Part shown: in pieces, positions 5,423-19,863 of the stretch
How positions within the stretch are numbered: position 1 is the first letter of the stretch
Layout: each line of letters opens with the position of its first letter
Assembly: GCA_963765595.1 (NCBI GenBank)
Contig: CAVXXE010000004.1
Location: 45,902-77,901 of the forward strand
Origin: an uncultured delta proteobacterium
GTDB lineage: Bacteria; Desulfobacterota; Desulfobacteria; Desulfobacterales; JAFDCJ01
Reading direction: 5' to 3'
Length of the DNA: 32,000 nt
The notes under the pieces: model-generated
Databases searched by the model: none
Told to the model about the DNA's origin: nothing
What the model saw: only the letters and a program-made list of their open reading frames with translations
Made by a program: the position numbers and the translations under genes

Positions 5423-5485
5423 TTTGGTTGTTGGTTATTAGTTATTTGGTTTGCGGTTAATCGATATGCGGAACATTAACCATCA
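5423..5485. repeat. Degenerate tandem heptamer tract starting at the AOR stop codon
   Basis: Read in 7-nt units from 5423: tttggtt gttggtt attagtt atttggt ttgcggt taatcga tatgcgg aacatta accatca. Confidence 0.55.
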
Positions 5486-5555
5486 GAGGCTCAATCACCA
5501 ATGGGATGGATTCGAACTCTGGAATGTGAGCAGATTTCTAATAACAATAAACAAA

Positions 5556-5569
5556 TCCGCCGCGGCGGA
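5556..5569. promoter_or_regulatory. Perfect 14-nt palindrome TCCGCCG|CGGCGGA just upstream of the ferredoxin SD
   Basis: Two adjacent 7-nt units that are reverse complements of each other. They sit in the same 7-nt register as the tract that starts at 5423. SD TAGGAG follows at 5571-5576 and the ATG is at 5584. Confidence 0.4.
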
Positions 5570-5583
5570 TTAGGAGATAATAA

Positions 5584-6084
5584 ATGGCTAAGATTTTATA
5601 CATAGATCACGAGAAGTGCACCGGCTGCCGACTGTGTGAGCTTGTGTGCGCTGTTTCGCATGATGGGATATCCAATCCTGCCCGCAGCCGTATCCGGGTG
5701 TTGAAATGGGAGGCCGAAGGTCTTTATATCCCGATGACCTGTCAGCAATGTCAGGATGCACCCTGTCTGAATGTCTGCCCGGTCAAGGCCATTTCACAAG
5801 ATGAGCAGTTGGGCCGTGTAAGCGTTGACTACAATACCTGCATCGGCTGCCGTTCATGTGTCAGCGTATGCCCTTTCGGTGCCATGAATTATAATACCAC
5901 CGATCGGCGGGTCCTCAAGTGCGACGTCTGTGACGGCGATCCGCAGTGTGTCCGGTTCTGTGACGTCAAGGCCGTCGATTTTATTGAGGCCGGTGAAGTG
6001 GCCATAATAAAGAGCAGAAAAGCCGCCAAACGGGTATCGGAAGCAGGTAAAACGGCTGCTGATTTGGAGGCTCAGATGCGGTGA
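5584..6084 (+). CDS. Polyferredoxin, four [4Fe-4S]-type cysteine motifs; probable electron-transfer subunit of the AOR
   Basis: 166 aa with CTGCRLCELVC, CQQCQDAPCLNVCP, CIGCRSCVSVCP and CDVCDGDPQCVRFC. Directly downstream of the AOR on the same strand. Confidence 0.85.
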   Translation: MAKILYIDHEKCTGCRLCELVCAVSHDGISNPARSRIRVLKWEAEGLYIPMTCQQCQDAPCLNVCPVKAISQDEQLGRVSVDYNTCIGCRSCVSVCPFGAMNYNTTDRRVLKCDVCDGDPQCVRFCDVKAVDFIEAGEVAIIKSRKAAKRVSEAGKTAADLEAQMR

Positions 6085-6150
6085 ACTCTTATGTTTCTTT
6101 CATTAGATGGGATTGACCGAAAAAAAAGCTGCTGAGGATACGTCCGCTTC

Positions 6151-6756
6151 CTAAACCGCCTTCAACGAGGAGTCATTTTTGGGGTGATTTTTCGAATCGT
6201 CTCCCCAGCGTCTGAAGAGATCGTGTTCGATGCCCATAAAGTCGAAAATCTTTCCGATGGTTTGATCGATGATATCATCGATGGTTTTGGGCATGTGGTA
6301 AAAGGAGGGGACCGGGGGAAGAATATGGGCGCCCATGTCAGCCGCCATGGTCATCAAACGCAAATGTCCCTTGTGCAGTGGGGTTTCCCTAACGACCAGC
6401 ACCAGTTTGCGCTTTTCTTTCAAGGTTACATCGGCGGCTCTCACCAAAAGATTTTCATTGTAGGAATTGGCAATTCCCGACAGCGTCTTGATGGTGCAGG
6501 GCACCACCACCATGCCTGCGGTCAAAAAGGAACCGCTGGCCAGGGATGCCGCCACATTTTTGTGGTCGTAAACATAATCGGCCATTGCCTTTACATCAGC
6601 AGGATCATAATCCGTTTCGATTTCAATATTCAGCTCACCGGATTTTGAAATAATCAAATGCGTTTCATAGTCTGTTTCTTTAAGTACACTCAGCAATCTG
6701 ACGCCATAAGTTGCCCCGCTGGCACCGGATATTCCGACGACGATTCGTTTTGGCAT
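6151..6756 (-). CDS. ubiX: Flavin prenyltransferase UbiX (prFMN synthase)
   Basis: 201 aa. N-terminus RIVVGISGASGATYGVRLL and the conserved body (VVPCTIKTLSGIANSY, LKEKRKLVLVVRETPL) are typical of UbiX/Pad1. Confidence 0.9.
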   Translation of the reverse strand: MPKRIVVGISGASGATYGVRLLSVLKETDYETHLIISKSGELNIEIETDYDPADVKAMADYVYDHKNVAASLASGSFLTAGMVVVPCTIKTLSGIANSYNENLLVRAADVTLKEKRKLVLVVRETPLHKGHLRLMTMAADMGAHILPPVPSFYHMPKTIDDIIDQTIGKIFDFMGIEHDLFRRWGDDSKNHPKNDSSLKAV

Positions 6757-6903
6757 GGGTTTCCTCTTGTTTATTTTATCTGGTTGATTAGAGCTTTCTT
6801 ATTTTGGGACATGGATTGCACAGATTGATATACACTTCTACTTATGATTCAAGACAAAGAGTTCCTAAAATCCGTGTGTGTCGGTACAAATCTGTGTCCT
6901 ATT

Positions 6904-8112
6904 CTAAAAGATTTTCAAAGCCGTTTTAGCCACTTCTGCAGCAAACTCGGGATCCTCCATGTTGGCGTCAACTTCTATTATTTCAACATCAGGGTTGAGT
7001 TTTTCCCGCAGCACCTGGGTAAATAAACGATCCTCTGCTGGATCATGGGTGTCGTTGCCGGGCAGATCCGCTGACGACCAGCCGTTCAGAGGGATTATGA
7101 CGGTTACCGGTCCCTTGGACTGGTTGAGTTTTTCTGCAAAGACCCCGGCCACCGCCTTGAGTTCCTCGGGCGACAGCCGGATCCAGGTCCGAAGTTTGTC
7201 CAGATCGAACTTTCGTCGTTCGTGATATTCGGGTTTATACCTGGATCGAGCCGGGGTCATGTGGTTTACACTGCAAGTCGAGATAAGTTGGGGCAGACCC
7301 AATTTGCCGGCGGTTTCCAGGCGATGGGGACCGGCATCCCGCATAAACCCGAAGAGGTGTTCACCAACACCTCCCGGGGCCAGGTCGATAACGCCTTGGA
7401 AGAATCCTTCGGCAATCATAGCCTCCATGGCGCGGTCGCCGATGCCGGATGCTGAAAATCCGATAATCTGGTAACCTTCCTGCTCCAGCGCCGTCCGTAC
7501 CGAGCTGGCGCATTTTTCACAGGGACCCAGCATGGTCAGAGCAATGGCTTTGCCTTTTTCGCCCTTCGGCGATGCGATATCATCGGCAGCCATGCCTGCC
7601 AAAGCGTGAGCTGCGCGATCCATGACATTTTTTAGCAGATCGGAAACGCCGGATATCTCGACTACCGAATGGAAAAGGGCAATATCCCCGGTTCCGATGT
7701 AGCGGGTGGAAAGACCGGGCAGGGCGGCCGTAGACGAGATCATCACTTTGGGAATCCCAAACGGCAGGGAGCGCATGATTTCGGTGCCCATCAATGAACC
7801 GGTGGATCCCCCCAGAGCGATAACACCGTCCAGCTTATCCTGGGCTAAGAGCTCAGCCGCAATCCGAGAGCCGCCGGCCATCATGATGTTGGTGATCCGG
7901 GTTCGATCGCGGGAACTTTGAATTTCTTCAAAACTGCCGCCGCCGGCCTCCGCCACGCGGTTCGCGGGAATATCGATGCCTGCGATATCGCTTCCCCGCC
8001 CGGAAATATCCATCAGAATCGGCACAAGTCCGATGGCACTCAATTTTTCCTTGAGATATAATGTCTCCAGCCCCTTGGTATCCAGGGTAGATATGACTAG
8101 AACGGTTTTCAT
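6904..8112 (-). CDS. UPF0261 / Tm-1-like ATP-binding domain protein (copy A)
   Basis: 402 aa. N-terminus VLVISTLDTKG. Conserved block GIPKVMISS...GDIALFHSV and second-half block SASGIGDRAMEAMIAEGFFQGVIDL are shared with ORFs 16563..17789 and 18001..19203. Confidence 0.8.
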   Translation of the reverse strand: MKTVLVISTLDTKGLETLYLKEKLSAIGLVPILMDISGRGSDIAGIDIPANRVAEAGGGSFEEIQSSRDRTRITNIMMAGGSRIAAELLAQDKLDGVIALGGSTGSLMGTEIMRSLPFGIPKVMISSTAALPGLSTRYIGTGDIALFHSVVEISGVSDLLKNVMDRAAHALAGMAADDIASPKGEKGKAIALTMLGPCEKCASSVRTALEQEGYQIIGFSASGIGDRAMEAMIAEGFFQGVIDLAPGGVGEHLFGFMRDAGPHRLETAGKLGLPQLISTCSVNHMTPARSRYKPEYHERRKFDLDKLRTWIRLSPEELKAVAGVFAEKLNQSKGPVTVIIPLNGWSSADLPGNDTHDPAEDRLFTQVLREKLNPDVEIIEVDANMEDPEFAAEVAKTALKIF

Positions 8113-8168
8113 AATAATTTATTCACTCATGAGCGCTATGTCCCATCAATTTATTCTGTACTTGAAAA

Positions 8169-8224
8169 GAAAATCCGAAATCCGAATTTCGAAACTCGAA
8201 ACAATAATCAAATTATAAATTCAA
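8169..8224. repeat. Degenerate tandem heptamer tract
   Basis: gaaaatc cgaaatc cgaattt cgaaact cgaaaca ataatca aattata aattcaa, in the spacer between the ligase stop and the UPF0261-A start. Confidence 0.6.
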
Positions 8225-8432
8225 ATGACCTAAACAAAAGATGCATCTTCTATGTAGGGCCGGCCACCCTGCCGGCCTCACTGCGGAAAGCAGTCACGGT
8301 GGGCTGCTTTACTCCTTTCCGCCGGCAGACACTGTTGGTTCTTCCACGGTTTTTTCCGGAAACCGTGAAAAAATCCAGTTCATCCTGTTGATCCTGTCCA
8401 ATAATAAACTAAAAAGAATCCTTTCCTTAAAT

Positions 8433-10088
8433 TCAGGTTTCTTTTGCCACTTTTTCCGCGATATTCTTTTTCAAGGTCTCTTTATTCACTTTTCCCGAGT
8501 CACCGACGGCGGGGAATTCGTCCACGACTTCGAGGCGTTCGGGAAGTTTATACATGGCCAGTTTCTTGCCTTTGAGAAATTCAACCATTTCTTCAAAGCT
8601 GAAATCCTGCCCGCCTTTGGCAATTACGTAAGCGCAGGTCCGCTCACCCATTTCGCGGTCCGGATAGCCCACGACGGCCACAGAGGCTACCTTGGGATGG
8701 TCATTGAGCAGACCTTCGATTTCCGCCGGATATATATTTTGACCGCCGCGAATGATCATGTCCTTGGCCCGGCCCAGGATCCACAGGCATTCCTGGTCGA
8801 ATTTAACGATATCGCCGGTGGTGGTCCAGCCTGCGGGATCGAAAACAGTGGCGGTTAATTCTTCGTCACGATAGTATCCGGCCGGTGCATGGGGGCCTCT
8901 GAAATACAGGATTCCGGGTTCGCCATCGGGTACCGGTTCGCCGGTATCCTTGTCCAGCAGACGCACCTTGTTGCCCGGCAGCATCCGCCCGACGGTCCGG
9001 CGGCGAAGATCTTTAGAATCTTCCACCCGGCAGCCCGAAACCGATCCCATATCCTGGGTTCCCAGATCACTGGTGATATTGGCACCGAAGGCCGTTTCGG
9101 CTTCTTCGGCGATCTGGGGCGAAAGATAGCCGCCGGCGGAACGGATAAAGCGCAAGGAACTTAAATCGTACTTGGAGGCGTCGACTTCGAGCATTCTGAC
9201 CAAATGGGTCGGCACCACACCGATGGCAGTGGCTTTCTCCTTTTCGATCAGGGCTAAAGCGGCCTCCGGCTCAAATTCCTCCAGCATGACCGTCTTGGCG
9301 CCGGCCAGGGGAGCGGCAAAATAGGTGAGGGTACCGGCGGCACCACCGGCATGGGGTGCAATCGCCATGGTGGTATCTTTGTGGGTAAGACCCCAGATAT
9401 CCACGCGGCCTTTTGAGGTACAGACGCGGGGGGCCGTGGGCCATTCCACCAGTTTGGGTATGCCGGTGGTTCCCGATGTCGTTGTCAGCAAGGCCACATC
9501 GGAAATTGGGTCCAATCGGCGCGCATTGAGGGTATCTTCGTCAATGGGCTTATCAGCGGCAGCCTGCGCTAATTGGGTTAGCGAATAGGTTCCCTCCGGT
9601 GCGCCTTCCGGAACTTCGTCGTCGAAAAGAAAAATCTTTTCCAAATGCGGAAATTTTTTCTGAAGTTCCCGGTACATTTCAAGATAATTGAAGTTGCGAT
9701 ATTCATTTAGAATCACAACGGCGGCGGCCTCGGTTCTTTCCACCATGTAAGTCAGCTCTCTTTCCCGCAAATACGGATAGACGGTCAGAGAAATAAGCCC
9801 GGCCCTTTCAGCAGCGATGCGTGCCAGGAACCCGTACACACTGTTGGGTGATTGAATGATGATTCGCGACGATTTAGGTATACCCATTTCAACCCATGTA
9901 TAGGCAATGGCATCCACCAGTTTTTTAGCCTCGGCCCAGGTGACGCGGTACTTGGAATCCACCAGGGCCTCCTGGTCACCCAATTCCCGGGCGTTTCTTT
10001 CCCAGAAATCATAAAAAAGCTCCCGGGTCCAGTATCCTTCATTAAAAAATTCGTCCACCATTTCTTTTTTATAGCGAATCGGTTTCAA
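8433..10088 (-). CDS. AMP-forming aryl/acyl-CoA ligase (adenylate-forming superfamily; EntE/AliA-like N-terminus)
   Basis: 551 aa. Motifs TTTSGTTGIPKLV, GDIVKFDQECLWILGRAKDMIIRGGQNIYPAEIE and a C-terminal SGKVNK lysine. TTG start at 10086-10088 with SD AAGGAG about 7 nt upstream. Confidence 0.85.
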   Translation of the reverse strand: MKPIRYKKEMVDEFFNEGYWTRELFYDFWERNARELGDQEALVDSKYRVTWAEAKKLVDAIAYTWVEMGIPKSSRIIIQSPNSVYGFLARIAAERAGLISLTVYPYLRERELTYMVERTEAAAVVILNEYRNFNYLEMYRELQKKFPHLEKIFLFDDEVPEGAPEGTYSLTQLAQAAADKPIDEDTLNARRLDPISDVALLTTTSGTTGIPKLVEWPTAPRVCTSKGRVDIWGLTHKDTTMAIAPHAGGAAGTLTYFAAPLAGAKTVMLEEFEPEAALALIEKEKATAIGVVPTHLVRMLEVDASKYDLSSLRFIRSAGGYLSPQIAEEAETAFGANITSDLGTQDMGSVSGCRVEDSKDLRRRTVGRMLPGNKVRLLDKDTGEPVPDGEPGILYFRGPHAPAGYYRDEELTATVFDPAGWTTTGDIVKFDQECLWILGRAKDMIIRGGQNIYPAEIEGLLNDHPKVASVAVVGYPDREMGERTCAYVIAKGGQDFSFEEMVEFLKGKKLAMYKLPERLEVVDEFPAVGDSGKVNKETLKKNIAEKVAKET

Positions 10089-10274
10089 AGTAGATCTCCT
10101 TCTTTGGATTCTTAGTAAGCGTTCACAGGTTCATTGCTTTTTCCTGGATTTTACACCTGCCCTGAATTTGTCCCAGAAATCCTTGTCCGTATCCTTTAAG
10201 TAAATAAAATACCTTGTAAATTATTACGTTGTGGATCTACGAACTCTGTGGTGGATATTAATTTACAATGCTGA

Positions 10275-10307
10275 GGCCCATAGCATGAAAATGAACTGCT
10301 ATGGGCC
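10275..10307 (-). other. Perfect 11-bp stem hairpin (GGCCCATAGCA / TGCTATGGGCC, 11-nt loop) between the UbiD-like stop and the ligase start
   Basis: Read directly from the sequence. It starts 16 nt downstream of the UbiD-like stop on the minus strand. No U-run follows, so it is not a canonical terminator. Confidence 0.45.
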
Positions 10308-10322
10308 ATCATCTATGGGCTA

Positions 10323-11744
10323 TCAGCAGACAACTTTATCCAATCCCAGTTCCGACCAGCGGCCCTTGACTCTTTCAACGATTTCAGGATCCAATTCGAT
10401 GGGGATCGGTTTATCTTTCCAGTCATAGGGGATGGTGGCGTCCAACAGCAGCCTGCCGGTGATTTCTCTAGCGTTGATGGGTAGGGATGGATCCAGCGGT
10501 GTGGATCGTCCGCGTTTGATGACCTGAGAGCGATTGGGCTGAAAGCGGAAGCTCAAGGCGTACATGACCCGGGGGATATCCCAGGGATCGATGTCTTCAT
10601 CGACCACGATCACGGTTTTAAGCCCATAGGCACCCATCTCGGTAGAGATGGCGGCGGTCAGGACCTGGTCCGCGTGTCCGGGATACATCTGCTTAATTGA
10701 AATAATGGCCAGAAAACGGCCGGAGCCTTCCGGTGGGCAGTAAACGGCTTTTAATCCGGGAATTTTCATGGCCAGCAGCTGCTGCCACAGGGTGGCGCCG
10801 TAGGAGAGTGCCATGGTCATATGGGTATCGGTGACAGCCCGGCCGACGGTGGTTCCCCACAAAATCGGGTTGTTTCGGTGGGTAACGCATTTGACATCGA
10901 TAAAATTACGCGGATCGGTACCGACGCCGGAATAATAGCCGGTATACTCGCCAAACGGTCCTTCTTCCATAAATTTGTCGGCATCGACTTCGCCTTCGAT
11001 GACGATCTCTGCATGGGCCGGTATGGGCAGATCGACGGATTCTCCCTTGACCACTTCAACGGCCTCGCCGCGCAGTGCTCCGGCGACATCGTATTCCGAA
11101 GTAAAGGCGGAAATGCGGGCGGCTCCCAGGATAAAGAGCAGCGGGTCGCAACCGATCACCGAAGCCACCGGCATGGGTTTGCCCATGGCCTGGTATTTTT
11201 TCAGCATGATGTCGGCGTGTTTGCCCTTGATGAACTGGGTGCCCATCTTGTCCTTGCCAAGTAGCTGGCTGCGGTAGGTTCCCAAGTTAACCCAGCCGGT
11301 CTCGGGATCTTTGCTGATGATAAAATGGGCGGTGCCGATAAAACGTCCGCCATCCAGGGGATACCACTGGGGAACGGGGAATTTATAAAGATCGATATCA
11401 TCACCGCTTAAAATATTTTCTTTGCAGGGTGCCGCTGAGGCCGCCACTTCCTTGGGCGGTATCAGGTTCTCACCCAGTTTTGCCCATTCAACATAAAGAT
11501 CGACAAGGGTGGATTCGAGGGGCAGACCCATGATCAAAGCCAGCCTTTCGGTGGTGGTGCAAACGCTGGTGATCACCGGTGTATCATAATCTTTGACGTT
11601 TTCGAACAGCAGGGCCGGGCCGCTTTGTTCTTCATTTAATTTGGCGATATGCGACAGCTCCAGGTTCCAGTCGACTTCCGCCGTAATTCGTTTGCACAGC
11701 CCCACTTCTTCACCTTTGGCAATGAAATCTCTCATGTTTTTCAT
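10323..11744 (-). CDS. UbiD-family (de)carboxylase (prFMN-dependent family; resembles the large subunits of phenylphosphate-carboxylase-type enzymes)
   Basis: 473 aa. N-terminus MRDFIAKGEEVGLCKRITAEVDWNLELSHIAKLNEEQSGPALLFENVKDYDTPV follows the UbiD pattern (LRDF...L.RI...VD..LE...I......GPALLFEN). Length and body are consistent with the family. ubiX lies in the same gene string. Confidence 0.88.
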   Translation of the reverse strand: MKNMRDFIAKGEEVGLCKRITAEVDWNLELSHIAKLNEEQSGPALLFENVKDYDTPVITSVCTTTERLALIMGLPLESTLVDLYVEWAKLGENLIPPKEVAASAAPCKENILSGDDIDLYKFPVPQWYPLDGGRFIGTAHFIISKDPETGWVNLGTYRSQLLGKDKMGTQFIKGKHADIMLKKYQAMGKPMPVASVIGCDPLLFILGAARISAFTSEYDVAGALRGEAVEVVKGESVDLPIPAHAEIVIEGEVDADKFMEEGPFGEYTGYYSGVGTDPRNFIDVKCVTHRNNPILWGTTVGRAVTDTHMTMALSYGATLWQQLLAMKIPGLKAVYCPPEGSGRFLAIISIKQMYPGHADQVLTAAISTEMGAYGLKTVIVVDEDIDPWDIPRVMYALSFRFQPNRSQVIKRGRSTPLDPSLPINAREITGRLLLDATIPYDWKDKPIPIELDPEIVERVKGRWSELGLDKVVC

Positions 11745-11847
11745 TTCGATCCTTTTCTCCTCTTTTAATTTGGTGTTATTGTGATTATTACGTTTGTTGA
11801 GTAAATTGAGTTATATTTCACCCTAGTTGAACGACGCTCAATTAGGT

Positions 11848-11889
11848 GGTACTCGGTATTGGGTATTCGGCATTGGTTCCGCATTCCCT
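11848..11889. repeat. Degenerate tandem heptamer tract
   Basis: ggtactc ggtattg ggtattc ggcattg gttccgc attccct. Confidence 0.6.
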
Positions 11890-11967
11890 CCGGGGTTTAG
11901 GCCCCTATGGCCCCTACGGCTTCCGGCGCGTAGATAGAGCCTACAGCTCGGAGAGCCCGGAGGCCGT

Positions 11968-12023
11968 CTTCCCACTTCCAATACCTCTGCCCTTGGCCTT
12001 TAACCTTGAACCCGGAACCTTTT
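11968..12023. repeat. Degenerate tandem heptamer tract
   Basis: cttccca cttccaa tacctct gcccttg gccttta accttga acccgga acctttt. It ends 4 nt before the stop codon of the upstream minus-strand gene. Confidence 0.6.
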
Positions 12024-12027
12024 TCCT

Positions 12028-13098
12028 CTAGCTCGGAAGCTTGATCCGCTTCATCGCCTGTTCCATCAACAACTGATAACCGGTCTTTTTGCCGAGTACC
12101 GATTCCTTCTTGCGCTGGCTCCAGACGGTTTCCGGGCGTGCCTGAACAATGAAAATATTTTCCGGAAACGAAAAATCCTTGTCGATGGCCCACTCGATAT
12201 CCATGGCGCGGCCGTAGTGGGTTTCTATGGTTTTGGCTGTTTTGACCAGTTCTTTTATTTCCTGGTCCTCAAGACAGCAGGTGCACTGCATGTCTGCGGC
12301 TACATCGGCGTCGACGGTTTCTCCTTTTTCGACGTCGAAGACACACTCGATGTGTTTGGTGGAGATGGTCCGCTCATTGATCTCCCCCATGACCTTGTCG
12401 ACGACGAATTTGTCCGGGTTGACGGAGCCGGACACGACCGTTTCTCCCAAACCCCAGCTTCCTTCAAGCACGACTTTGGAAATATCCCCGTCGGTGGGAT
12501 TGAGGGTGAACATCACCCCCGCGGCCTTTGAGTTCACCATTTTCTGAACACCGACACTGATCAGTACCTTTTCATGGGGGAAGTCATTTTTAACCCGGTA
12601 GCTGATGGCCCGCGGCGTATATAGGCTGGCCCAACATTTTCGCACACTTTCATTGACCCGCTCAGCACTCGTTATCCAAAGGTAAGTGTCCTGCTGTCCG
12701 GCAAAACTGGCCGTAGGCAGATCTTCCGCGGTCGCGCTGGATCTTACCGCTACCGGAAGGGCATCAACCTCGCATTTTTTGCAAAGCAGAGAATATCCGT
12801 CCGCGATCGCCTTTTGGACATCATCAGGGATGACCGCCGTCCTGATCATTTCCTGGATTTTTTCGGCGACCTGGTTAAGCGCATCGATATTATCGGGATC
12901 CAGATCCGCCAGGAGGCTGAAAATTGTATTATTTATCCCGGCTTTCTCCATAAATACCGCATAACTGCTGGTGGTGACGGCAAATCCTGGAGGAACCCGA
13001 ATACCGGCATTGATCAACTCTCCCAGACTGGCATTTTTACCGCCAACCACCGGCAGCAAACTTTTATTCAGTTTGCGAAAATTCAGGATTAAATCCAT
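12028..13098 (-). CDS. PEP/pyruvate-binding (ATP-grasp, PPDK_N-type) protein; phenylphosphate-synthase small (about 40 kDa) subunit-like
   Basis: VVGGKNASLGELI and VAVRSSATAEDLPTASFAGQQDTYL match the nucleotide-binding N-terminal domain of PEP synthase. I place the start at the internal ATG 13096-13098 (MDLILNFRKL...) because SD AGGAGA lies 7 nt upstream. The longer track ORF to 13194 adds a basic, non-homologous extension. Confidence 0.8.
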   Translation of the reverse strand: MDLILNFRKLNKSLLPVVGGKNASLGELINAGIRVPPGFAVTTSSYAVFMEKAGINNTIFSLLADLDPDNIDALNQVAEKIQEMIRTAVIPDDVQKAIADGYSLLCKKCEVDALPVAVRSSATAEDLPTASFAGQQDTYLWITSAERVNESVRKCWASLYTPRAISYRVKNDFPHEKVLISVGVQKMVNSKAAGVMFTLNPTDGDISKVVLEGSWGLGETVVSGSVNPDKFVVDKVMGEINERTISTKHIECVFDVEKGETVDADVAADMQCTCCLEDQEIKELVKTAKTIETHYGRAMDIEWAIDKDFSFPENIFIVQARPETVWSQRKKESVLGKKTGYQLLMEQAMKRIKLPS

Positions 13099-13146
13099 TA
13101 TTATTCTCCTGCAGAATCTCCGAAATCTTTTATATTGCTTCCAAGA

Positions 13147-13170
13147 CCCCCTCCCCGGTCGGGGAAGGGG
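13147..13170 (-). other. GC-rich intercistronic hairpin (CCCCTCCCC-ggtc-GGGGAAGGGG)
   Basis: Read directly from the sequence. It lies in the 125-nt spacer between the two synthase-like genes. Confidence 0.4.
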
Positions 13171-13223
13171 TGCGAAGGTTGCAGTATTACTCATCTCTAC
13201 AAGGGTACTCGAACCGGTGCTGT

Positions 13224-15086
13224 TTAACTCGCTCTTTCGACAATCGTGACAACACCGGTATCACCATCGACTTTGACAATATCACCGGTTTTAATAGCGG
13301 CGGTGGCGATACCGCAGCCGGTTACCGAAGGCACACCATATTCACGGCAGACAATCGCCGCATGGCTGGTCAGCCCGCCGATGTCGGTTACCGCGGCCTT
13401 GATATTGGTGAAGACCGGGGCCCAGGATGGATTGGTCGACGGGCAAACCAAGACCTCACCCGGCTGCAGGTCGACAATGTCCTTGAGCCGCTTGAGAACC
13501 CGCGCCGGACCTTCAGCCACGCCGGCCGAAGAGGCAAAACCCTTGATTTCAGACATGTCCGCACCTGCCGTCGTGTCGACCCCTTTGAGCCATTCCTTGA
13601 CCTTGTCGGTGGTGATCCCCCACAGCATGATGGTGAACGGCTCGGCCACTTCTTCGGGTGGCACGCCCAGGGCCGGTGTCGGATTCCATTCGACGGCCGC
13701 CTCGAGGATCTTTCTGCGTTTCGCGGCCTTGGATTTATAGTATTCATCCCTGACCGGTATATCCACGCCCAGAGCCCAGGCGGTTGCAACTTCAGTCAGA
13801 AGCTGCGGAATTTCGTAACGGTTGAACATAAATATGTCGTCGACATCATCAATCATTCCGTTGTCAACCAGGACCGATCCAATTTGCCTGATTTTTTTAT
13901 ACCAAATGGTATGGAACCAATGCTCTACCCAGAAGAGATGATCCTCGGCATAGCGGTAGATGGTTCTGATGGTGTTATAGGCATCATCAAAGGCTTTGCG
14001 GTCGTCGTCGGTTTGTATCATCTTGCGGTACTCGGCGACAATTTCATTGCGTTCCTTCTCGATCCCATCCAGGGAGCGCTCGATGGTTTCGCCTTTTTCA
14101 AGCCTTTCGACATAACCTTTGATATAGCTATAGGGAATGTCCAAATCAGTCAGCCAGCTGCCTTCGTGATGGTACCAGCCGCTGCCACAGGATACGTAAA
14201 ACCAGGGGTCACTTGACTTTTCATATTCGGCCAGCCAGTTTTTGCCGGCTTCTGATTGTTGAAGTTCAGCAATCTTCTCGGCGGCGGATTTTGTGCTCTT
14301 GAGAATGCTGCCCACGCCATCCGCCGAAACTGCCAGCCGGGCCAGGCGGCAAAGCTCTTCTTCGGGGCGGAACATGGAAACATAGGCGCCGGCCACCATC
14401 TTGCCGATGGCACTTTCGCTGATCCCGGGAAAAAGCTTACGGGACACATCGCCAAACATCAGATAGGCCAGATAGGTCAAGTTGAGCATTTCGAAATGAT
14501 ATTGCCAACCTTTGAACATCTGGTTGACCAGCTTGTCGAAGGACTCGATCAGGTCGTAACCTTCATAATACCCCGTGGGGGCCGGAAAAACCTTGTCATC
14601 GGGGACGTATTTAGGCAATTCCGCGGGGATCTGAACGGCCCTCATTTCTTCCCCCAGGGCCTTGAATTTCGTCAGCCATTTGTCCCACAATTCATCGTAG
14701 TGTTCAAAGACATAAAATACCCGTTTTTCAAAATGGGCGGCTTTTTCAGCGATAATTTCATCGGGCGGCGGGGCAATCGCGCAGATATACAGGTAGCAGC
14801 CCACCAACCGCTGGGCAATTCCCTGGGCCGGAGGGATGCAAAATACGCGGGTCGTATACTGTGACAATGAAATCTGCCAGGCTTCCTGAAAGATTAAATC
14901 CAGCGGCGGCAGTGGTTCGGGTGCGTGGATTTTGTCCGCATACCAGAATTGGGCCTTTTCCCAATCGGCTCGATCCTGTGAGAATAGGTGATGGGTGGGA
15001 TACATTTCCTCCCAGCCTTCAAGCTCCGGGGGGACTTTAAACTCGTGAGGGTCCGGAAATCTGCCTTCATTATCTGCCATTTTCAT
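13224..15086 (-). CDS. PEP-utilising enzyme, mobile phosphohistidine-domain protein; phenylphosphate-synthase large (about 70 kDa) subunit-like
   Basis: 620 aa. The C-terminal swivel-domain motif DIGGLTSHAAIVCREYGVPSVTG carries the catalytic-type His (about residue 575 by my count). The large N-terminal region is not PEP-synthase-like. The true start may be the second ATG at 15080, which has AGGAGA 6 nt upstream. Confidence 0.8.
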   Translation of the reverse strand: MKMADNEGRFPDPHEFKVPPELEGWEEMYPTHHLFSQDRADWEKAQFWYADKIHAPEPLPPLDLIFQEAWQISLSQYTTRVFCIPPAQGIAQRLVGCYLYICAIAPPPDEIIAEKAAHFEKRVFYVFEHYDELWDKWLTKFKALGEEMRAVQIPAELPKYVPDDKVFPAPTGYYEGYDLIESFDKLVNQMFKGWQYHFEMLNLTYLAYLMFGDVSRKLFPGISESAIGKMVAGAYVSMFRPEEELCRLARLAVSADGVGSILKSTKSAAEKIAELQQSEAGKNWLAEYEKSSDPWFYVSCGSGWYHHEGSWLTDLDIPYSYIKGYVERLEKGETIERSLDGIEKERNEIVAEYRKMIQTDDDRKAFDDAYNTIRTIYRYAEDHLFWVEHWFHTIWYKKIRQIGSVLVDNGMIDDVDDIFMFNRYEIPQLLTEVATAWALGVDIPVRDEYYKSKAAKRRKILEAAVEWNPTPALGVPPEEVAEPFTIMLWGITTDKVKEWLKGVDTTAGADMSEIKGFASSAGVAEGPARVLKRLKDIVDLQPGEVLVCPSTNPSWAPVFTNIKAAVTDIGGLTSHAAIVCREYGVPSVTGCGIATAAIKTGDIVKVDGDTGVVTIVERAS

Positions 15087-15371: not shown

Positions 15372-16331
15372 GTGCTGAACTTTAACCAACTGCGGGTGTT
15401 TTACCACGCTGCAAAAAATTTGAATTTTACCATGGCGGCCAATGAGCTCTTTATTACCCAGCCGGCGGTGACATTTCAGATGAAGGCTTTTGAAGAGTTC
15501 TGCAATTTGAAACTTTTTAAAAAGAGGGCACGGCGGTTGTTTTTAACTGATGAGGGCCGGGCGCTTCTTGAATACGCTGAAAAAATTTTTAAATATGAAA
15601 AAGAAATCGAAAATGTCATCGAAGACATGCGGGAACTCAAACGAGGTGTCCTCAGTCTGGGTACCACCAAAGCCTATGCCCGCTATTTCATGCCGCTGAT
15701 GCTAAGCACCTTTCACCAAAAATTTCCCAAGATAAAAATCCAACTGAATGAAGGCAGTTCCCTGGACATGACCTATAGTCTGCTTGATTTTAAAATCGAG
15801 GTGGCCGTGGTCGCCAAAGCCGGGGAGCTGCCCGAAGTTGATTTTTTTCCTTTCAGCAAGGAAGAAATGGCGATCATCGTGGCTCCAGACCATCATTTTA
15901 CAAAGAAAAGGTCCATCGCTTTTAAAGACCTCGCCAATGAGCCATTCATCATGAAGGAGCAAGGCTCGGGAACCCGCAAATTGGTTGAAGAATTATTTTC
16001 AGATGCAGACTGCGCACCGGATATTCTGATGGAAACCAGCAACACCGAATTTATCAAGCAGCTGGTCCAGCGTGGTGAAGGAATTTCTTTTTTAGTGAAA
16101 GAAGCGGTGGCGGCTGAGATTGAGGAGAAAAAATTGGCCCAGGTGGCGCTGAAAGGCCGCCCACTTTTTTTAGACGTCAGCATTGCCTATCTTAAAGGTC
16201 AGGTGCTTTCACCGCCTGCCAGGGCATTCGTGGACACTCTCAGAAATTTGAAAACCGATGATGAGGAAATGCACCCCATGGGAATCGGGTTGATGATGGC
16301 CAAAATTCTTGCCCAACGGAAAACCAGATGA
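15372..16331 (+). CDS. LysR-family transcriptional regulator
   Basis: 319 aa. N-terminal HTH LNFNQLRVFYHAAKNLNFTMAANELFITQPAVTFQMKAFEE followed by a LysR substrate-binding domain. GTG start. Confidence 0.85.
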   Translation: MLNFNQLRVFYHAAKNLNFTMAANELFITQPAVTFQMKAFEEFCNLKLFKKRARRLFLTDEGRALLEYAEKIFKYEKEIENVIEDMRELKRGVLSLGTTKAYARYFMPLMLSTFHQKFPKIKIQLNEGSSLDMTYSLLDFKIEVAVVAKAGELPEVDFFPFSKEEMAIIVAPDHHFTKKRSIAFKDLANEPFIMKEQGSGTRKLVEELFSDADCAPDILMETSNTEFIKQLVQRGEGISFLVKEAVAAEIEEKKLAQVALKGRPLFLDVSIAYLKGQVLSPPARAFVDTLRNLKTDDEEMHPMGIGLMMAKILAQRKTR

Positions 16332-16457
16332 CGGATGACTGAGAATCTTGAATGCGAAAGTCGGAATGCGGAAGGCGGAATAGAGAAACAGAGGACAGAT
16401 GACGGATGAGGGCAGGGAGCATGGCGCATGGGGCATAGAGCAGAGCTCGCTTTTCGC
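16325..16457. repeat. Purine-rich degenerate heptamer array (array D)
   Basis: Units from 16332: cggatga ctgagaa tcttgaa tgcgaaa gtcggaa tgcggaa ggcggaa tagagaa acagagg acagatg acggatg agggcag ggagcat ggcgcat ggggcat agagcag agctcgc ttttcgc. By hand count about 71 of 119 positions are identical at lag 7. A 14-nt direct repeat, cagatgacggatga, occurs at 16325 and 16396. Confidence 0.7.
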
Positions 16458-16562
16458 CATTTAATGATTTTAGCAACCAAACTGACGAAAGAACACGAAA
16501 CATATTCGTTGCGCCACAAATGCACAAAGACGCGAACATGAACTCTTCCAAGGTCAGCAATT

Positions 16563-17789
16563 TCACTTTGCGTGTTGTATTAGCTTTTGCTGAGCCTCGA
16601 TGATGGCCCGGCTAAACATGGGATCGTTGATATGACAGGGCAGGGTCCTCAGGTTGGCTTGGTTATCTAATATTTTCTCCAGCATTTTAACAAATAGTGG
16701 CGGGGCAGCGGGATCATGCAAAGGGCCGTCTGGGTGGTCGAAAGCCGAGAACCCTTTCATCGGCACCAGGATTTTCCAGGGTCCCTGCGCCTGATTGCAT
16801 AATTCGCCTATGATTTTGGCCAGCGCTTCTATCTCGTTCTGTTGGGTACGCACGACGGTTATGGCGGCATTGTGGACATGGTAAGGGCGGCCGGGGAAAC
16901 TGCGTTCGACGGTCTCCAGAGGGCCGGTGACCAGAAAATCGATGTTGCCGGGGATAATAATAGTGGGAATACCCCGCTTCAGGGCGACGGTCCCGCGCGC
17001 CGGCCCGGCATCGTAGTCTCCGCCAAAATGATGATCCGCCAATTCGTGCAACGACAGGTCTACCAGGGCAGCTACCTTTTCCTGGGCCAGCATTTCTTCC
17101 ATGGCCTTCCCGCCGGCCCCCACCGTATGGAAGATGATCACTTCATTGCCTTTTTCTTCCAGGGTTTGGCGAATGTTTTGGACGCACGCTTCGGTGGTGC
17201 CCAGGGTGGATATAAACACCAGTGGTTTTTGTTTTGAATCATCCTTGCCGGCGGTGTGTCGCAACATGCCGGCCATTGCCAGCGCACCGTTGCGAAGAAC
17301 TTTTTTGGTGACCCGGTTAAGGCCCGTCAGATCGCAAACCGAGTGCAGCATGAAAATGTCTTTGGTGCCGACAAATGCGCGGGTGTCGCGGGATGCCATG
17401 GTGGAAATCATCACCTTGGGAACGCCGATGGCAAGGTTGCGCATGACTGCCGTGCCCAGGGTAGTGCCCATGGAACCGCCCAGTCCGATAACGCCCTGGA
17501 TTTCACCCTGATGATATAACTCCCGGGCGCATTTGACAGCCCCGGTGGTCATGATTTTCAAGGCCCTGCCTTCGTGGCCGATGTTTTGAACCTCTTTCAG
17601 CGGTTTGCCGCCGGCTTGAGCGACCTTTTCCCGTGTGATGTCTACCGGTACCGGACTTGCGCCTCGGATGCCGGCATCCATAATTTTAACCTGAATCCCC
17701 TCTTTATTAATACAATCGGCGATATACAGGGCTTCCTGGCCTTTGGTGTCCATGGTAGCGACTAATAAAGCGACAGAGCGATGTGGCAA
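16563..17789 (-). CDS. UPF0261 / Tm-1-like ATP-binding domain protein (copy B)
   Basis: 408 aa. LLVATMDTKG, GVPKVMISTMASRDTRAFVGTKDIFMLHSV and HTVGAGGKAMEEMLAQEKVAALVDLSLHELADHHFGG. TTG start at 17787-17789 with SD GGAGG 5 nt upstream. Confidence 0.8.
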   Translation of the reverse strand: MPHRSVALLVATMDTKGQEALYIADCINKEGIQVKIMDAGIRGASPVPVDITREKVAQAGGKPLKEVQNIGHEGRALKIMTTGAVKCARELYHQGEIQGVIGLGGSMGTTLGTAVMRNLAIGVPKVMISTMASRDTRAFVGTKDIFMLHSVCDLTGLNRVTKKVLRNGALAMAGMLRHTAGKDDSKQKPLVFISTLGTTEACVQNIRQTLEEKGNEVIIFHTVGAGGKAMEEMLAQEKVAALVDLSLHELADHHFGGDYDAGPARGTVALKRGIPTIIIPGNIDFLVTGPLETVERSFPGRPYHVHNAAITVVRTQQNEIEALAKIIGELCNQAQGPWKILVPMKGFSAFDHPDGPLHDPAAPPLFVKMLEKILDNQANLRTLPCHINDPMFSRAIIEAQQKLIQHAK

Positions 17790-17854
17790 AATAACCTCCG
17801 TTGGTTTCGGAAATTCTTCAATTGACCGAAATCATATAGCTCGTAACGGTTCCA

Positions 17855-17889
17855 TTTTTATGTTTTATGCTGTATTCCATTATTCCAGT
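17855..17889. repeat. Degenerate tandem heptamer tract
   Basis: tttttat gttttat gctgtat tccatta ttccagt, in the spacer between UPF0261 copies C and B. Confidence 0.5.
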
Positions 17890-18000
17890 TCTTGAGTCGA
17901 TGGTTTGCGATAAATTCTCCCTAAGCAAGTGTTCACAGGTTCAAGGTTATTATTCAAATATGACATTAATACTTAGACTATAATTACTCGATATTTAAGT

Positions 18001-19203
18001 TTATTTATGTATCATTGCATCCATCAAAGTGGCCGCAATCTCGCCAAAGGCGCTGTCGTTGATGTGCCGATCCACCTCTTGAATTTCGATTTGAGGATCG
18101 AGAACCTCTTTCAGCCTCCCGGTAAAAATTAAGTTCATTTCAGGATCATATAAAGGTCCGCCTTGCCGGTCGGCCTCGGACCAGCCTCTGCCAGGAATCA
18201 GCACTTTTATGTTGCCTGCATCGCGGTTCAGTTTTTCCGCCAGTTGATTTGCCAGACAGGTGGTTTCTTCAATGTTGAGCCGGATTGCGGAGCGGAAGTC
18301 GTAGAAAAAGATTTTTCGATTTTTATATTCGTCCGGAATGTTCTGTCGGGTAAATTCCAGAACCGCACAATCCAGCCCTCCCGGAACGACCAGCCGGGGG
18401 ATCGATCTGCCGGGAACCGGTTCGTACCGTTGCGGTCCGATGGCACCGCAATAGCCATCCAGCAGATGATCCGCCAGCTCGTGGGTGGCCAGGTCCAGAA
18501 TGCCGTCAAAATACCCTTCCGCCGCCAGTTCTTCCATGGCCATGCCGCCGGTGCCGTTGGCATGGAAGGCAACAACTTCATACCCCAGCCTTTCCAGGGC
18601 CTTGCGGGTGGCTTCAGCCCCGGCAGTGATAAAACCGAAAAAGGGCAGGGCGATGCGTTTTTTTACTTCAGCGGGTTGCCATTGACTTCGAACCATGCCG
18701 CATATGGCGGCGGCGCCTTTATCCAGGATGTTGCCTGAAATGCTGTTGACACCCAGCAGATCCGCGACGCTGTGGATCATGGTAATGTCTTTAGTGGAGA
18801 CGATATCGGCCATGTTGCGTGAGGCCACGGTGGAGATCATCACCTTGGGAACACCCAAGGGCAGTTCGCGCATAATGGTGGCGCAGATATGGGTTCCCGT
18901 ACCGCCGCCGGCTGAAATTATGCCGCTGATTTTGCCGTCCCCATGCAGTTTATTAATTTGTACTTTGGCCTCGTGCAGCATGGCATTTATTATATTATCT
19001 CTTCCCTCAGGTATGTCCGACGCGTTTTCCGTGACATTTTGAAACAAATCTAGATCCACCGGCACCGGTGATGGCGCCCGGGTTCCGACGTTAATCGTCA
19101 GCGTCCGTAATCCCCGTTGCGCTATCTGCTCTTTTAAAAACATGTGTTCTTCTGCTTTAGAATCGAAGGTTCCAACGACAGCGATGGCAGAATCAATTTT
19201 CAT
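18001..19203 (-). CDS. UPF0261 / Tm-1-like ATP-binding domain protein (copy C)
   Basis: 400 aa. IAVVGTFDSKA, GVPKVMISTVASRNMADIVSTKDITMIHSV and HANGTGGMAMEELAAEGYFDGILDLATHELADHLLDG. Confidence 0.8.
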   Translation of the reverse strand: MKIDSAIAVVGTFDSKAEEHMFLKEQIAQRGLRTLTINVGTRAPSPVPVDLDLFQNVTENASDIPEGRDNIINAMLHEAKVQINKLHGDGKISGIISAGGGTGTHICATIMRELPLGVPKVMISTVASRNMADIVSTKDITMIHSVADLLGVNSISGNILDKGAAAICGMVRSQWQPAEVKKRIALPFFGFITAGAEATRKALERLGYEVVAFHANGTGGMAMEELAAEGYFDGILDLATHELADHLLDGYCGAIGPQRYEPVPGRSIPRLVVPGGLDCAVLEFTRQNIPDEYKNRKIFFYDFRSAIRLNIEETTCLANQLAEKLNRDAGNIKVLIPGRGWSEADRQGGPLYDPEMNLIFTGRLKEVLDPQIEIQEVDRHINDSAFGEIAATLMDAMIHK

Positions 19204-19301
19204 AAACTGACCTCAAAACAGGTTGCAGGATTCCTTTTGGGCATAGACCCCGGCGGCCCCTAAAGGCCGGAGGCCGAATTCGGCCTTCCGTTCCGCACCT
19301 G

Positions 19302-19379
19302 TTGCTTTTCGCATTCCACATTCCGACTTCAGACTTCTGTTTTCTGTCCTCTGACTTCCGTCATCTGATCTCTGGCCTC
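19302..19379. repeat. Pyrimidine-rich degenerate heptamer array (array E)
   Basis: ttgcttt tcgcatt ccacatt ccgactt cagactt ctgtttt ctgtcct ctgactt ccgtcat ctgatct ctggcct. By hand count about 46 of 70 positions are identical at lag 7. A 16-nt palindrome, AGGCCGAATTCGGCCT, lies just upstream at 19271-19286. Confidence 0.7.
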
Positions 19380-19863
19380 AGCGATCATGCCGGCTGCAAC
19401 CCGAAAAACCCATCCTTGTGCCAGACCAAAGGTGGTCTTTCCGTAATCTTCTTGATCTACAACCCGGCCGATGAAAATCCGGTATCCCTTAATTTCTTGA
19501 CTGCTCTCCACCTTACACTCCATCCAGGCCGCCGACCCTTCGGGAATGGGGGCATTGCTGGTTTTTGCCGGTTGGATTTATGAAATTTTTCAAACTTGTC
19601 CGCTGTCTCACCTTTGATACTCCCCACTTGCATGGCCAGATTTCTTCTGGTCCTAGCCGGCGATTACCAGGGTGAATTTTTCGGATTGATTCGATTAATT
19701 TCTCGGTGAGATGGTCCTTGGCAACACTGATGGCAAGCAGCGGCTCTTTTTCCGAAACAAACATCGCCGTGGCTGTCATGATATCACGCGTTTCTCCATG
19801 GGCCGTGCATACAAACACTACCGAACACGGCAGCCAGTAAAAAACATTATTTTCTCTATCCAT
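19329..19863 (-). pseudogene. Flavin-reductase-like (FMN-binding split-barrel) gene with several frame disruptions
   Basis: The start is intact (SD GGGAGG, ATG at 19861-19863). LPCSVVFVCTAHGETRDIMTATAMFVSEKEPLLAISVAKDHLTEKLIES fits the flavin-reductase domain. The continuation is scattered over three frames: FTLVIAG then an in-frame TAG, GETADKFEKF, and IQPAKTSNAPIPEGSAAWMECKVESSQEIKGYRIFIGRVV. The apparent C-terminal tail is a translation of heptamer array E. Confidence 0.55.

Follow-up and report, generated by a model that had tools for sequence, protein, structure and literature searches.

The heptanucleotide sequences called STRR (short tandemly repeated repetitive) are built of a few fixed heptamers, repeated almost without change. 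Mazel et al. reportedly described them in 1990 from heterocystous cyanobacteria as dispersed, intergenic tandem heptanucleotides that come in several sequence families per genome. In Xanthomonas and Nostoc, Rehm et al. (2015; PMC4692102) described intergenic G-rich heptamer repeats of the units GGGAATC and GGGGA(T/C)T, respectively, and in marine Beggiatoaceae MacGregor (2015; PMC4679880) described intergenic TAACTGA direct repeats that in forward orientation provide stop codons in all three frames and in that orientation can overlap just the very end of an open reading frame (ORF). Here we analyse two heptamer arrays, D (16325-16445) and E (19294-19381), in a stretch of 32,000 nt (the window; C4:45902-77901) of a Desulfobacterales draft genome of sulfate-reducer type, 6.35 Mb in 133 contigs with 48% GC, the closest relatives of which are metagenome-assembled genomes (MAGs) of the same order. 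The two arrays bracket a pair of UPF0261 genes, and an earlier note made from the letters of the window had observed that they share words that are reverse-complemented one by one and yet keep the same order, from which it proposed either one unit-level process working on opposite strands or functional boundaries of a two-gene cassette. Had this claim held, D and E would have stood for a type of cassette boundary, or a strand-flipping repeat process, that was new. We propose instead, with a probability of about 85%, that D and E belong, independently of each other, to a genome- and genus-wide STRR-like class of about 1,100 arrays, which are attached to upstream stop codons and share one small unit vocabulary.

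Both arrays can be placed among the heptamer repeats already known from bacteria, the STRR, Xanthomonas and Nostoc types, of which they are a degenerate, drifting form. Like STRR, the arrays of this genome are dispersed, intergenic tandem heptamers of which one genome holds several families; unlike STRR, their units mutate along the tract, the Hamming distance rising with lag, and the arrays are mosaics of unit types. D and E are themselves mosaics of three types, which we call A (CAGA[AGT][AG]), B (GGAA[TG][GTC]) and C (GCAT[AG]G); written as whole heptamers these are CAGA[AGT][AG]N, GGAA[TG]NN and GNGCAT[AG]. With the repeats of Xanthomonas and Nostoc the arrays have in common the tandem units of 7 nt, the genome-wide excess of period 7 and a location that is intergenic in about 90% of cases (PMC4692102). 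Where they are downstream of genes, those repeats lie 0-50 nt from the stop codon or overlap it, and carry the G-rich strand on the coding strand, as do the arrays here, and our C-type units (GGGCATA, GGGGCAT), with their GGG or GGGG tracts, resemble the G-tract type of these two genera (PMC4692102). The differences are that Xanthomonas and Nostoc have one dominant unit in about four copies, whereas here the arrays are long and degenerate and draw on many unit families, and that the Xanthomonas repeats in aligned spacers do not favour the coding strand overall (30-35% in either direction), whereas here the sense bias is about 2.7:1 (PMC4692102). The TAACTGA repeats, too, are intergenic heptamers with stop codons, which in our arrays are the TGA or TAG of A- and C-type units; but TAACTGA is one exact heptamer in 2-6 copies that mostly faces a downstream start codon, while the arrays described here are degenerate, long and placed at the upstream stop (PMC4679880). 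Stop-codon adjacency on the coding strand is accordingly not new, having been described for Xanthomonas and Nostoc (PMC4692102), and neither are stops in all frames, described for Beggiatoaceae (PMC4679880).

A genome-wide class of degenerate heptamer arrays

A simple autocorrelation detector finds 1096 degenerate 7-nt-periodic arrays in the genome, about one per 6 kb; run on the first 40 contigs as a control, it reports 389 arrays in the real sequence and six after shuffling. By the same approach 631 regions have period 7, compared with 6-36 at periods 4-6 and 10-12, and TRF lists 1265 rows of period 7, 320 of period 14 and 113 of period 21, compared with 145, 587 and 546 rows of periods 6, 8 and 9. 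The array midpoint falls outside ORF-based gene calls in 985 of the 1096 cases, and of the 3639 spacers that exceed 40 nt, 742 contain an array. The arrays have a median length of 58 nt and reach more than 1 kb, and their degenerate, drifting units come from many families, making the vocabulary of the genome as a whole a broad one. Adjacent units (lag 1) differ on average at 2.7 of 7 positions, and units at lag 8 at 4.2-4.4; the detector biases the first of these values, but not the increase seen from lag 2 on. Neighbouring units that differ this much on average do not make up arrays of near-identical copies of one fixed heptamer. Degenerate arrays of periods 8 and 9 are likewise over-represented at equal threshold (220 and 104 regions, compared with the 6-36 of periods 4-6 and 10-12).

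The narrower vocabulary of D and E, defined by the unit types A, B and C, is carried by 219 arrays (hereafter class arrays), in which CAGAtGA, cGGAATG and GgGCATa are the typical units; no unit type is commoner in the genome than B. The vocabulary of D recurs at dozens of sites in each of the 18 same-genus genomes searched and, of 79 further genera in the order, 8 have it too.

D and E are genuine 7-nt-periodic tracts, as the earlier note had read them, both by TRF and by the autocorrelation detector, which places them at 16338-16462 and 19294-19381. Array D, recognised by TRF, autocorrelation and the sequence itself, begins at the stop codon of a LysR-family gene within a convergent spacer and consists of some 17 degenerate heptamers whose + strand is rich in purines, in the register CAGATGA CGGATGA CTGAGAA TCTTGAA TGCGAAA GTCGGAA TGCGGAA GGCGGAA TAGAGAA(A) CAGAGGA CAGATGA CGGATGA GGGCAGG GAGCATG GCGCATG GGGCATA GAGCAGA. 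Its blocks follow each other as A (CAGATGA CGGATGA), B (GAATGCG AAAGTCG GAATGCG GAAGGCG), A (CAGAGGA CAGATGA) and C (GGGCAGG GAGCATG GCGCATG GGGCATA). Array E, seen in the sequence and by the detector, lies upstream of one of the UPF0261 genes (UPF0261-C) and has about 12 heptamers, purine-rich on the - strand, on which the register reads GAGGCCA GAGATCA GATGACG GAAGTCA GAGGACA GAAAACA GAAGTCT GAAGTCG GAATGTG GAATGCG AAAAGCA. On that strand an A block (CAGAGAT CAGATGA CGGAAGT CAGAGGA CAGAAAA CAGAAGT) is followed by a B block (GAAGTCG GAATGTG GAATGCG).

Read directly from the sequence, the four words of the earlier note, which we number 1 to 4 by ascending coordinate, are all where it had located them, and each word of E is the exact reverse complement of its partner in D; word 4, CAGATGACGG, has a second occurrence in D at 16325-16334. 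D and E have five maximal exact matches of at least 10 nt, the longest being 11 nt, compared with a mean of 0.05 and a maximum of one in 2000 dinucleotide shuffles of the two arrays. The statement that the sharing is far beyond chance therefore stands against shuffled sequence. The proper null for such sharing, however, is other arrays and not random sequence, and among arrays the pair is neither unique nor exceptional. As both arrays are built from one small set of unit types, they share words of 10-11 nt, one such word spanning only about 1.5 units.

Sharing between D and E compared with other arrays

Among the 23,871 pairs that can be formed from the 219 class arrays, 33% have at least one match of at least 10 nt and 4.9% have at least four, the latter figure being 12.4% for pairs that lie 0.2-10 kb apart. 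Elsewhere in the genome 140-153 arrays have 10-mers in common with D and 97-102 with E. Within the class, partners with at least five matches number 7 of 140 for D and 4 of 102 for E; the D-E pair ranks 7th among the partners of D and 4th among those of E, richer partners being found elsewhere for both (six for D, three for E). A sensitive BLAST of the two arrays against their own genome returned 90 other loci for D and 43 for E, yet no alignment between D and E at E<=1, each array being absent from the matches of the other. Moreover, each segment of D and E has exact or near-exact stretches of 17-28 nt on other contigs, which are longer than any match between D and E.

Several observations weigh against reading D and E as wholly independent. 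With at least five matches the pair is in the top 2.7% when set against all class pairs, 1.7% against distant pairs matched for composition and 7.8% against pairs 0.2-10 kb apart. All four exact words are found together in D and E only, although this exclusivity is partly circular, the words having been defined from the D-E pair. In addition, class arrays share on average 1.36 words when nearby (0.2-10 kb) and 0.71 when distant (p=4e-5); as nearby arrays are more alike than distant ones, some local process or regional vocabulary exists. Finally, how arrays grow, and whatever function they may have, is something that we infer. Class arrays 0.2-10 kb apart are also 3-8 times likelier than distant pairs to share a match of 18-25 nt. 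The excess similarity of neighbouring arrays suggests local duplication or exchange between nearby spacers.

The order of the words carries less than it seems to. In D, word 1 overlaps word 2 and word 3 overlaps word 4, which leaves two independent blocks to be ordered, not four words. The order of the two blocks is itself ambiguous because word 4 occurs twice in D, sitting at both ends of the D head, and the order of junction words inside a block is set by the phase of alternating units, which run X-Y-X in D and Y-X'-X-Y'' in the reverse complement of E. Under an inverted alignment, three of the word pairs of D and E are concordant and six discordant. In the 1177 class pairs with at least four shared words, an average of 52% of word pairs are discordant, and fully discordant arrangements are common. 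The colinear order of individually flipped words, which the earlier note took to be meaningful, arises by coincidence from two blocks, of which D has one in duplicate, and is without information. That note had itself conceded that, should the same words occur in most arrays in random order and orientation, the colinearity would be a by-product of a small shared unit vocabulary, and with a third of class pairs sharing words and about half of word pairs out of order this is substantially what is found.

Two other explanations of the order were considered and rejected. If the copy of word 4 at 16325 is used, the D head and the reverse-complemented E become partly collinear (A, then B) as in a plain inverted repeat, but they align poorly, at a level that BLAST does not report. 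A genome-wide "grammar" of blocks likewise fails to give the order a meaning: A-then-B is favoured over B-then-A, in 32 versus 11 two-block arrays and in 72 versus 43 transitions, a bias too weak to be informative, which is probably due to B units abutting a REP-like hairpin.

Turnover of the arrays in relatives

Orthologous arrays turn over between relatives such that an old tail is held in common and the head is replaced. In the closest relative (G009), the genes of which have 88-90% nucleotide identity, the array after the LysR gene is orthologous to the C-type tail of D (from ~16396) and 40 nt beyond, whereas the head of D with words 1-3 is missing. The sequence of D and the gap in its alignment with this orthologue delimit a lineage-specific stretch of 71 nt on the + strand (16339-16409), made up of the head of 57 nt (16339-16395) and the second copy of a 14-nt repeat (16396-16409), and holding words 1-3 as well as the second copy of word 4. 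The repeat, CAGATGACGGATGA, is direct, its first copy lying at 16325-16338, 71 nt from the second. The part of D that it bounds, missing from the closest relative, looks like a block gained via recombination or slippage between repeated words. Between the two copies an 8-nt unit, TAGAGAAA, has moved the heptamer register by one base. As for E, short A-type arrays that follow the flavin-reductase stop codon in G009 and in another genus member (G005) are orthologous to its A block, while its B block and the hairpin next to it are lineage-specific. Across the orthologous spacers G005 has arrays in both, made of other units in matching orientations, G003 has none and those of G009 are short; G011 and G016 carry arrays in a different spacer, between the LysR gene and a gene for a PEP-utilising enzyme.

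It is conceivable that D and E took their words one from the other, or both from some source nearby, for instance when neighbouring arrays on opposite strands underwent template switching or short-tract gene conversion; the sharing would in that case record a specific local history in addition to the genome-wide vocabulary. Such local exchange would agree with the higher frequency of pairs with at least four matches among neighbours (12.4% versus 4.9%; p=4e-5), with the position of D-E in the top 2-8% and with the 14-nt direct repeat that bounds the head of D. The B blocks of both arrays, which hold words 1 and 2, are moreover absent from the orthologous arrays of G009 and are for this reason both recent. 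Against this, units of type B outnumber all others in the genome and are present in G009 too, and every segment of D and E has a better and longer match on other contigs, with no reciprocal BLAST match between the two. Pairs with at least five matches also typically reach a match of 14 nt, and just 9% of them have, like D-E, a longest match of 11 nt or less. We therefore regard exchange between these two arrays as improbable, and retain the explanation that each drew independently on the common vocabulary.

Orientation and attachment to stop codons

The orientation of the arrays follows the genes. In co-directional spacers the purine-rich strand of class arrays is the sense strand in 104 cases and the antisense strand in 39 (~2.7:1), and a second count has array orientation following the strand of the upstream gene in 84 of 112 (p=1e-7). 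Replication strand was considered as the cause of orientation and set aside, since gene strand is the better predictor: where gene strand and local GC skew disagree, the arrays side with the gene in ten cases and with the skew in four, small numbers, with a skew that is itself shaped by gene strand.

Sense arrays start at a median of +1 nt from the stop codon and 90 of them begin within 15 nt of it. Often the first unit includes the stop codon, and 78% of such stops are TGA or TAG, compared with 58% genome-wide; A- and C-type units contain TGA or TAG and often supply the stop. D conforms to this, as the TGA of the LysR gene (16329-16331) is inside its first unit, CAGATGA. E begins 5 nt past the ancestral TGA (19386-19388) of a decayed flavin-reductase-like gene on the - strand. 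The earlier note's observation that E overruns the 3' end of this gene applies only to a frameshifted ORF (19329-19523), the ancestral stop codon lying 5 nt before the array.

D and E are in opposite orientation because each follows the strand of its own upstream gene, + for LysR and - for the decayed flavin-reductase gene. The idea of one unit-level process acting on opposite strands is in this respect broadly right, given a class that extends over the genome and the genus, the local similarity of units and the agreement of orientation with the upstream gene in 84 of 112, but nothing in it is specific to D and E.

Gene neighbourhood and the cassette question

The LysR-family regulator (15372-16331, +; Pfam HTH_1 and LysR_substrate) is followed across the D spacer by UPF0261 paralogue B (16563-17789, -; Pfam UPF0261 and UPF0261_C), the Desulfobacterales orthologues of which have 65-89% identity, and by paralogue C (18001-19203, -; Pfam and synteny). 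Beyond E lies the flavin-reductase-like gene (19386-19863, -), which three-frame translation against the intact orthologue of G005 (157 aa; Pfam Flavin_Reduct 9e-25) marks as a pseudogene with at least three frameshifts, though these may include assembly error. A third UPF0261 paralogue in the window is at 6904-8112. The order flavin reductase, UPF0261-C, UPF0261-B, LysR (on the opposite strand), PEP-utilising enzyme and PPDK_N protein is conserved at 65-95% protein identity in the genus and other Desulfobacterales, and is kept in at least six genus members (G003, G005, G006, G009, G011 and G016), arrays present or not.

The UPF0261 pair sits within a conserved catabolic cluster. This region of the window (3482-15086 and 16563-19203) is a cluster of the anaerobic aromatic-degradation type, which contains an aldehyde:ferredoxin oxidoreductase with a polyferredoxin, a Flavoprotein-family protein (PF02441; 6151-6756), UbiD (10323-11744), an AMP-ligase and the LysR regulator, together with PPDK_N and PEP-utilising proteins that are phenylphosphate-synthase-like.

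D and E could on this arrangement be functional boundaries (insulators, recombination sites or terminal inverted repeats) of a UPF0261 cassette that is mobile or regulated on its own: they flank the pair in opposite orientation, and the junction between LysR and UPF0261-B is variable in the genus. Three relatives have an extra ~1.7-1.8 kb there (G009, L061:31-1722; G011, L063 4514-6245; G016, L064 5103-6943), encoding in G009 a pyridine-nucleotide-disulphide oxidoreductase of 563 aa, and the window, G005 and G003 are without it; the D spacer is accordingly a site at which a gene has been gained or lost, or the scar of such an event. But gene order is conserved with arrays, without them or with different ones, and when the segment at 16.3-19.4 kb was looked for in relatives as a unit, as the earlier note had suggested, it was not seen to come and go as one, the order of the pair being constant in the six genomes irrespective of arrays. 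No empty site for the pair was seen in the genomes examined, many of which are incomplete MAGs. Five genus genomes are without a close UPF0261-B orthologue at the protein level, all of them MAGs and none with an empty site, and in G012 UPF0261-C stands beside a different gene with no UPF0261-B there. Outside D and E we found no direct repeat of the kind left by target-site duplication, the outer flanks being the coding ends of LysR and of the flavin-reductase gene, orthologous in relatives. Nor are the arrays collinear inverted ends that match each other best, the three concordant and six discordant word pairs and the mutual absence from BLAST matches being the opposite of what such ends would give. 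Furthermore, about 740 other spacers have arrays. Nothing marks D and E as the ends of a gene cassette, and the boundary idea is not supported; it is largely refuted, and we consider it extremely improbable.

Pairing and folding as RNA

On the - strand E is purine-rich and D pyrimidine-rich, and their words are complementary, so that E as a 5' leader might pair with a 3' trailer formed by the reverse complement of D and thereby join the ends of a UPF0261-C/-B operon mRNA. The predicted duplex energy of -57.5 kcal/mol would seem to favour this but is unremarkable, as 21% of other arrays pair as well or better with E and 43% with the complement of D. Words in the same order also preclude one continuous helix, and relatives do not conserve the arrays at these spacers. 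Folded as RNA, D has less structure than its shuffled versions (z=+1.7), and the E region folds chiefly via the REP-like hairpin (z=-1.1); at Rfam gathering thresholds no known RNA family matches anywhere in the window. Taken together, this makes an mRNA-joining role very unlikely. No intrinsic terminators are predicted in the D and E spacers.

How the arrays may grow

The genome thus holds a class of arrays with a common vocabulary, an orientation rule, attachment to stop codons and turnover between relatives. We suggest that such arrays would grow and drift locally in tolerant spacers, through unit-level duplication (replication slippage or short-tract recombination) and point mutation. Some gain or loss of blocks, and perhaps some local exchange, would accompany this, none of it particular to D and E, and the bias towards the sense strand could stem from transcription-linked processes or from selection.

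A more specific scheme, which we put forward as a rather unlikely speculation, is that arrays are seeded at stop codons, oriented by transcription and grow on the non-template strand directly past the stop, for instance by slippage that stable hybrids of purine RNA and pyrimidine DNA would favour, while neighbours swap units by template switching. If it were true, the excess similarity of nearby arrays, of which D-E is one example, would be the footprint of exchange. As part of this scheme, arrays may moreover serve in sense as unstructured, C-poor spacers of the 3' untranslated region and, in the other direction, as C-rich sites at which Rho is loaded to counter antisense or convergent read-through.

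The modest value of the genome is that it offers a dense and quantified case of the long-unexplained heptamer repeats. It constrains models of array growth, which would have to account for the attachment to stops, a sense bias of ~2.7:1 that tracks gene strand over GC skew, the divergence of units with distance, the similarity of neighbours and the old tail with its replaced head; it shows no function.

A REP-like hairpin beside E and a multi-copy element

Abutting the B block of E is a degenerate copy of a REP-like hairpin (GGCCTCCGGCC...GGGGCC...; 19248-19290, -; fold prediction), inside which a perfect palindrome, AGGCCGAATTCGGCCT, occupies 19271-19286. The family to which it belongs (GGCCTCCGGCC...CCGGAGGG) resembles REP and BIME elements in being a dispersed, GC-rich intergenic palindrome present in dozens of copies; it is unlike them in that no Y1-transposase gene lies within 1.5 kb of the hairpin motif and in that the hairpins stand among B-type units in heptamer register, which they keep. 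Full copies (GGCCTCCGGCCC...GCCCCGGAGGG) number 47 in the genome (for example at C9:70068, C20:23386, C34:115760 and C48:103599), and 27 of these are flanked on both sides by B-type (GGAATGC-type) units. The hairpin motif is no more than 100 nt from an array in 32 of 74 cases, compared with 4.6% of the genome. RAYT-driven spread of the hairpin was considered and rejected, as none of the 15 Y1_Tnp genes of the genome has the GGCCTCCGGCC motif within 1.5 kb.

A copy of the REP-like hairpin is also found ~40 nt upstream of a PF05635 (23S rRNA IVP / four-helix-bundle) gene carried by a multi-copy element, for which no link to D or E was found. The element is ~1.3 kb long (3.7 kb in C3 and C133) and 99.8-100% identical between C3:8501-9799 and its copies on C17, C42, C108, C130, C133 and C81 (loci L053-L058). 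PF05635 has 14 matches in the genome, of which six are score-identical and lie inside this element.

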